The notes beneath the pieces were generated by a model. That model had not been told where the DNA came from, did not search any database, and was given only the letters and a program-made list of their open reading frames with translations. From the NCBI RefSeq assembly GCF_003334305.1, contig NZ_QOWS01000073.1: a DNA stretch of 633 nucleotides, one strand, 5' to 3'. The translations under genes were made by a program, and so were the position numbers. Shown one piece after another: positions 1-633 of the stretch; the first letter of the stretch is position 1, and each line of letters opens with the position of its first letter. Source of the DNA: Escherichia coli. Lineage in GTDB: Bacteria > Pseudomonadota > Gammaproteobacteria > Enterobacterales > Enterobacteriaceae.

Positions 1-633
1 TCATCAGGGACATCGCAAACAATATGAAGACGGATTTCTTCTCTGCCGTGACTCTTTTCACTGATTGCGTAACTGTCATGCTCTGGATTATTTAATTCTT
101 TCAGCGGAAATTTTTCCTCAAAGGCTTTATTTAGCCGCCCCTGGTTTCCTTTTACCGCGAATAAATAATCACCTCCCTGTTTTTGTATCTTCTCTGCAAT
201 ATCTTTCTGGCAACCCATCGCATCAGTTGTGATGATTTTTCCTTTAATATCCAGCATGTTAAGAAGTTCTGGGATAGCTGTAATCTCATTAGATTTCTCA
301 TCCGTCTTGATCTGTCCGATGACCAGACTGTGCATTGTTGAGAACGCACTAATGACATGAATCGCTCCCCTGCGGCGACTCTTGTCATAAGAGTGCCGGA
401 GCGTTTTTCCATCAATTGCAATGACGTCTTTATCATCTGAAGAATGGCAGTCACGCATCCAGTTAATAAAGCACTCATGAAATTTTGCAGGACTGATACA
501 GGATACAACTCTGGCAATAGTATCGTGAACAGGAATACCATTTTCAAAATCACCATATTGCTTCAAGAAATCGAGATGTGTTTCCCCGAAATCCTCTATA
601 TCTTCCCAACTTTCTGCACCAGAAATAACGGCA
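1..633 (-). CDS. ISAs1-family transposase (H-repeat-associated protein, ISEc1-like), internal fragment, partial at both ends; in-frame codons occupy 632..3
   Basis: Seen in sequence: manual translation of the reverse complement in this frame gives 210 consecutive sense codons with no stop across the whole window. Recognition: motifs such as [50 protein letters not shown] and [33 protein letters not shown] match, from memory, the H-repeat / ISAs1 transposase family (E. coli YhhI/YdcC/YbfD-type proteins, roughly 378 aa). The ORF track missed it only because no start or stop falls inside the window. No database search was run, so paralog identity and percent identity are unknown. Confidence 0.9.
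1..633 (-). mobile_element. Internal portion of an ISAs1-family insertion sequence (H-repeat element); terminal inverted repeats and target-site duplication not in window
   Basis: Inferred from the transposase CDS that fills the window. ISAs1-family elements are single-ORF insertion sequences of roughly 1.2-1.4 kb (established knowledge), so the element boundaries must lie beyond both window edges. GC of about 41% by hand count suits a mobile element, but the host genome GC is unknown. Confidence 0.8.
222..413 (-). other. Region containing two candidate catalytic aspartates of the DDE motif: Asp codon at 411..413 (in VIAIDGKT) and Asp codon at 222..224 (in IITTDAMG)
   Basis: Seen in sequence: both are GAT codons on the minus strand, 63 residues apart, each following a hydrophobic beta-strand-like stretch as is typical of the first two acidic residues of DDE/RNase-H-fold transposases. 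Assigning them as the catalytic residues is inference from general DDE architecture, not from an alignment. The catalytic Glu would lie downstream of the gene, beyond position 1. Confidence 0.4.

Follow-up and report, generated by a model that had tools for sequence, protein, structure and literature searches.

The 633-nucleotide stretch of Escherichia coli DNA considered here (assembly GCF_003334305.1, contig NZ_QOWS01000073.1), called the window at its full length, is crossed by a single open frame of a transposase gene and raises the question of whether such a frame marks an insertion sequence (IS) that is still moving or one that has long been settled in the chromosome. A preliminary description, made from the letters alone, had assigned the frame to an H-repeat transposase and considered that the copy might be active and drive continuing rearrangement. 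We regard it as highly probable that the window is an internal piece of an intact ISEc1 transposase gene, belonging to an old, vertically inherited and structurally complete copy that has its place on the edge of an Rhs locus. The H-repeat itself, which ISfinder and RefSeq name ISEc1 (ISAs1 family), has been in the literature since the early 1990s and is a matter of routine annotation.

In the six-frame translation, minus frame 2 runs from 632 to 3 through 210 codons with 0 stops; the remaining five frames hold 5, 6, 8, 18 and 24 stops, and the ORF listing contains nothing longer than 134 aa outside the main frame. A run of 210 codons free of stops has a probability of ∼4e-7 at the 41% GC of the window, and not one of 20,000 shuffles has produced a fully open frame, which together with the translation bears out the uninterrupted frame of the preliminary description. 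Its assignment to the H-repeat has been confirmed as H-repeat/ISAs1-family by the curated ISAs1-family transposase model NF033564 (cutoff 70), which scores 282.8 bits on the window and 417.6 bits on the full protein, where model positions 1-314 of 314 are covered. The 100% matches of the window are annotated as 'ISAs1-like element ISEc1 family transposase' CDS. From the open frame, these matches and the model score, bases 3..632 (minus strand) are codons 36-245 of 378 of the H-repeat/ISEc1 transposase gene (ORF-H), and the window as a whole corresponds to positions 249-881 of an element of 1,291 bp. A promoter scan has given a signal no higher than the shuffled expectation, and the Rfam search of the window has returned nothing relevant (one eukaryotic snoRNA match, 22 bits at a gathering score of 60).

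The element has been found to be complete beyond the window. When the query is given flanks of 500 bp, matches from unrelated contexts end at identical bases (query 501 and 1791), and the H-repeat is thus a discrete 1,291-bp unit. It carries an ORF of 1,137 nt (378 codons and a stop) at element positions 145-1281, with an AAGGAG ribosome-binding site (Shine-Dalgarno) ahead of the ATG. The terminal inverted repeats are likewise present, with a length of 11 bp and one mismatch (10 of 11 positions match between the left end, CAGGGAAAGAT, and the reverse-complemented right end, CAGGGCAAGAT); copies retain these ends, which are occasionally mutated to CAAGG, TAGGG or CCTTA. Short terminal inverted repeats starting with CAGGG are what we take, following ISfinder, to be a trait of the ISAs1 family, and these ends, the NF033564 score above its cutoff and a DDE triad (below) place the element there, as does the single ORF that fills a unit of family size (1,291 bp and 378 codons, within 1.2-1.5 kb).

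Intactness extends to the whole gene as well. The 378-aa ORF is uninterrupted in 18 of 18 fetched loci with the exact allele of the window (L001-L007 contain the window itself, and L015-L024 encode the exact L002 protein), and it is also intact in L008-L010, which have been located through plasmid-database matches and not through a window match. Indeed, in every fetched locus outside the RhsC array of K-12 the matched full-length copy has 378 aa and no stop, as judged from annotation only for L027. The preliminary description had made its proposal depend on the rest of the gene being intact, which is the case in the fetched exact-allele loci. It had put the unseen part at a third or so, and this was an underestimate: the window holds 210 of the 378 codons (56%), so that 44% of the gene lies outside it (35 codons upstream and 133 downstream). 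Its premise that intact copies are unusual has turned out to be weak, since the 378-aa form is the dominant protein cluster with 38,559 member sequences, although degraded copies do occur (in L013, and as an additional copy in L025 and in L026). For the H-repeat element, being intact is the usual condition.

The decayed copies are varied in their arrangement. In S1-CHI-01-A (L025:1-2983, yafV-ivy-fadE) an H-repeat is split at element position ∼1085-1087 by a group II intron encoding the ltrA reverse transcriptase/maturase, and a spacer of 21 bp separates it from a second copy, which is intact. At L013:8303-10859 (K-12 RhsC) and L026:3001-5284, full and truncated copies stand head to tail with no spacer between them; the K-12 RhsC array consists of a fragment of 380 bp, a ybfL that has indels, and ybfD, which spans positions 25-911.

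What the encoded protein would do can be approached from its domains. Bases 456..632 (minus strand) encode the C-terminal two thirds of an N-terminal helical domain, recognised by Pfam as DDE_Tnp_1_assoc (PF13808; window residues 1-59 on model positions 30-88 of 88, E 3.9e-20), which spans residues 8-94 of the full protein, is all-helical in an AF2 model and is presumed to be DNA-binding. Bases 75..434 (minus strand) encode the first part of the catalytic domain, DDE_Tnp_1 (PF01609; window residues 67-186, E 3.5e-18), which reaches in the model from beta1 to shortly past beta5 of an RNase-H-like core. The two Asp codons singled out in the preliminary description, 411..413 and 222..224, both read GAT on the minus strand and encode D109 in the motif IAIDGK(TL) and D172 in the motif (I)TTDAMGC(Q). 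A search of 1.84 billion representative proteins has yielded 30,604 relatives at E ≤0.001. The query has been aligned with 119 full-length relatives that share 35-54% identity (n = 120); here D109 and D172 are conserved at ≥90%, and G110, K111 and E306 (motif HWxIEN) are invariant. E306, the downstream catalytic Glu that the preliminary description could not see, lies 61 codons past the end of the window.

The model built on the relatives' alignment is confident (pLDDT 94.7, pTM 0.91), as against a pLDDT of 32 for the single-sequence AF2 run. Its strands within the window comprise residues 105-113, 126-133, 138-144, 168-171 and 190-195, with D109 in beta1 (105-113) and D172 as the first residue after beta4 (168-171); E306 is placed on a long helix (292-316), and a beta-rich insertion (221-286) lies between beta5 and this Glu helix. 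Family conservation and the position in the confident model thus uphold the earlier suggestion that the Asp pair represents the first two members of a DDE triad. D109, D172 and E306 are located where the triad of a Tn5-like enzyme is expected, and the copy looks catalytically complete, an assignment that is founded on conservation and model topology rather than on a residue-level superposition on Tn5. The solved structures closest to the model are those of Tn5 transposase (4dm0, 1muh and 3ecp; E 2e-9 to 5e-9, TM 0.51-0.55; for 4dm0 and 1muh E 2e-9 and TM ∼0.52), followed by piggyBac.

The resemblance to Tn5 and other IS4-type enzymes comprises the RNase-H-like core, the beta-rich insertion between beta5 and the Glu helix, and PF01609. 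The protein differs from Tn5 in that sequence identity amounts to only ∼10% and there is no sequence-level structure match (sequence and profile searches of solved structures in the PDB have returned nothing meaningful, with a best E of 0.5-0.9, and an insignificant match to the RHS protein YenC2 has been dismissed as chance), in its length (378 aa compared to 455-460 aa of the solved Tn5 chains) and in its N-terminal domain, PF13808. The IS4-family model NF033592 reaches 19.4 bits at a cutoff of 115, which leaves the protein outside that family. With a Tn5-like fold but an IS4 score far below the cutoff, the ISEc1 transposase probably acts like the Tn5 enzyme without being a member of the IS4 family. 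By analogy with Tn5 and IS4-type transposases, and judging by fold and motif, the N-terminal helical domain would bind both CAGGG ends and the metal-binding DDE triad would cut and rejoin the DNA.

Megablast has located the element in 5,343 of the 5,426 complete genomes of E. coli; there are 24,099 places in total, with a median of 5 copies per genome and a range of 1-12. The K-12 copies of the H-repeat/ISEc1 (yhhI, also named H-rptB, ydcC and ybfL/ybfD) are the same element as that of the window. The reference copy is 97.9% identical to yhhI over 1,291 bp (99.05% in the window), and both share the length, the 378-codon ORF, the CAGGG ends and the position at the downstream end of an Rhs locus. 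An origin of the window as a K-12 allele has been ruled out by its mismatches to all four K-12 copies (6 to yhhI, 12 to ydcC, 12 to ybfL and 30 to ybfD), and its allele differs from those of K-12 in sitting beside nfrB, at an Rhs locus absent from K-12. Six of the seven fetched 100% matches have nfrB-nfrA on one side and, on the other, the orphan toxin/immunity tips of a PAAR-Rhs (Tox-MPTase4) locus, and the remaining one comes from the yhhI locus of strain 14EC047; as two loci carry it at 100%, the window alone cannot be pinned to one of them. The exact window allele is nevertheless the copy between the PAAR-Rhs toxin locus and nfrB.

This association of allele and locus has proven to be tight. 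All 10 of the 10 places at which the exact protein of the window has been found have the Rhs-nfrB context, and all 10 of the 10 with the K-12 YhhI protein have the rhsB-yhhJ context, both on the longest contigs (33 and 44) out of 24,099 places, so that lineage-specific new insertions could have been missed. Among the 5,426 genomes, at least 1,180 share the nfrB site (both flanks), at least 1,791 the yhhI site and at least 2,350 the ydcC-pptA junction. In the comparison of copy number and insertion sites that the preliminary description had proposed, copy numbers vary from 1 to 12, sites are widely shared and alleles are locus-specific. Most of the contexts seen are downstream ends of Rhs loci (rhsB, rhsC, rhsE, the nfrB-side Rhs, L026, L031 and L032), and those outside Rhs include an O-antigen cluster and the yafV region. 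In the O-antigen cluster of 19SZHZ803Rt (L027:3001-4288) an H-repeat with an intact ORF is flanked by galF and a gene for an acetyltransferase; its right end reads CCTTA instead of CCCTG, and it is not flanked by a target duplication. H-repeat remnants have been proposed as mediators of O-antigen cluster recombination in Salmonella (PMC3715488).

Phage records have contained nothing relevant. In PLSDB the element has given 25 hits, most of them to non-mobilizable records and several to Mb-sized ones, and those that were read carry chromosomal genes (ansP, nhoA, nfrB); examples of such plasmid-labelled records are NZ_OL790696.1 (4.8 Mb), CP054253.1 and NZ_OY754386.1. These records are probably chromosomal pieces filed as plasmids rather than plasmid-borne IS copies, and among the PLSDB records read no clean recent insertion with a target duplication has been seen.

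Target duplications of 8-10 bp are, as we take it from ISfinder, what the ISAs1 family leaves behind. Eight types of junction have been read, namely yhhI, nfrB (with two left flanks), the plasmid-labelled L008, ydcC (in K-12 and L009), yafV, the Rhs of L026 and the O-antigen cluster, and not one of them shows such a duplication. A flanking duplication, which the preliminary description had named as a mark to look for, is thus absent from all junctions read. ISEc1 resembles its family in the end-to-end match to NF033564, the one ORF in a ∼1.3-kb element, the CAGGG ends and the DDE triad, and departs from it in lacking a flanking direct repeat at every copy examined; the missing duplications bear on the history of the copies and not on membership in ISAs1. 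Paralogous copies differ by 1.5-4%, and are therefore not recent copies of each other. Transposition of the H-repeat has not been observed to date (PMC3032704). Taken with the locus-specific alleles and the widely shared sites, these results do not sustain the view of a possibly active copy causing ongoing rearrangement.

We accordingly consider it unlikely that the copy is transposition-competent, still moving and the cause of such rearrangement, the lack of target-site duplications at the junction types read, the locus-specific alleles and the distance of 1.5-4% between paralogues outweighing a complete ORF with its inverted repeats, Shine-Dalgarno site and DDE triad, a copy number that varies from 1 to 12 per genome, and the contexts outside Rhs (O-antigen cluster and yafV region). 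It does gain from a different ISAs1-family member, ISPmar4, which has been captured in Paracoccus by transposition into a trap plasmid (PMC3281130), and from a 260-bp deletion in one lineage, which begins precisely where the ydcC-locus H-repeat ends on its right side and which eliminates pptA (L009:4291/4292 compared to L030:5001-5261 and L012:8964). Such a deletion is of the type made by intramolecular transposition, which leaves no target duplication, and as a single observation it is a hint. Together with gene conversion between copies (below), this IS-end-anchored deletion hints at past activity. A low dN/dS, as described below, would also be expected if only working copies propagate.

The flanks of the resident copies have revealed a further regularity. 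At the ydcC-pptA junction of a soil isolate that is free of the element, homology to K-12 begins at the first base beyond the IS right end, and the right end of the IS therefore coincides with the edge of a variable Rhs island. At nfrB in K-12, which is without that Rhs locus, homology resumes 116 bp past the IS end, so that no comparable empty-site junction is available there. Across strains the right flank at nfrB is constant and the sequence to the left varies, with different Rhs tips (L006:3753 and L010:1706 compared to L002:3753); the element thus marks the fixed right anchor of a variable region. The left element end abuts a truncated ORF at L001:5407-5756, a HEAT-repeat pseudogene (yrhC in K-12), and at L002:3572-3751 a hypothetical gene with neither of its ends, from which it follows that the element or an adjacent deletion has cut into genes of orphan Rhs tips.

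How the frame has been kept open can be judged from the differences between copies. Among nine intact copies, dN/dS amounts to 0.02-0.3 in nearly all 36 pairs, with a highest value of 0.44 and three pairs without synonymous change, and in the L001/L002 pair 13 of 15 coding differences fall on third codon positions. As far as sequence comparison can tell, the differences are overwhelmingly synonymous and suggest that the transposase gene is or was functional; the purifying selection on it could equally be an effect of some other function. Copies have also exchanged sequence. The yhhI copy of 14EC047 (L001:5753-7043), compared with the nfrB copy (L002:3753-5043) and K-12 yhhI (L011:7235-8525), is a mosaic in which the informative sites at 271-737 are of the nfrB type and those at 17-235 and 912-1273 of the K-12 yhhI type. 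Judged by these sites, the mosaic is a gene-conversion tract between paralogues that happens to cover the window (249-881).

Such a tract gives some credit to the idea that the copy is an inert relic, its frame open only through too little time or through repair by gene conversion, as do the absence of reported mobility (PMC3032704) and the presence of decayed copies beside intact ones. We nonetheless find this improbable, as synonymous divergence between copies reaches up to 0.06-0.15 and the 13 of 15 third-position differences between L001 and L002 point the same way: time has passed and amino-acid changes have been removed. The same length and motifs in relatives of 35-54% identity add to this. 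In the preferred reading of an intact, vertically inherited resident, purifying selection keeps the copy intact and gene conversion occasionally homogenises it with its paralogues.

An equally improbable alternative is that of a transposase retained by the host (domesticated) at the distal Rhs edge, where it would serve the host or Rhs, for example in the exchange of orphan toxin/immunity tips. It would agree with the position of most contexts at the downstream end of Rhs loci, with the target duplications not being found and with the pptA junction, where the IS right end is the edge of the variable Rhs island to the base, as well as with the strain-dependent left sequence beside a constant right flank (L006 compared to L002). 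Copies at the same locus stay intact here: those at nfrB across strains show a dS of 0.035-0.09 and an omega of ∼0.04-0.23, and at synonymous sites they have diverged as much as the host gene next to them (nfrB dS 0-0.08), a comparison that is blurred by gene conversion, which can moreover mimic constraint in situ. Inverted repeats that have been kept and sharp 1,291-bp boundaries in many contexts are, however, what an autonomous IS typically shows; truncation or disruption has affected many copies (ybfQ, ybfL, ybfD and yncI of K-12, and the one split by a group II intron), and copies outside Rhs exist.

The resident at nfrB leaves a small puzzle, in that purifying selection acts on a gene at the edges of Rhs toxin loci despite its transposition never having been observed. 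The most far-reaching answer would be that the H-repeat transposase is a retained Rhs function, held under host-level purifying selection species-wide and rearranging or exchanging orphan tips. We give this a slightly lower chance than even the improbable readings above; if true, it would account for why the element keeps to fixed positions, lacks target duplications and does not transpose in the ordinary way. The element as such is already known, and the allele of the window resides at one Rhs locus, where it is fixed and shows no sign of recent jumping. For ISEc1, where intact copies are the norm, positions are inherited and alleles are locus-specific, an open frame with an intact DDE triad should therefore not count as evidence of a mobile copy.
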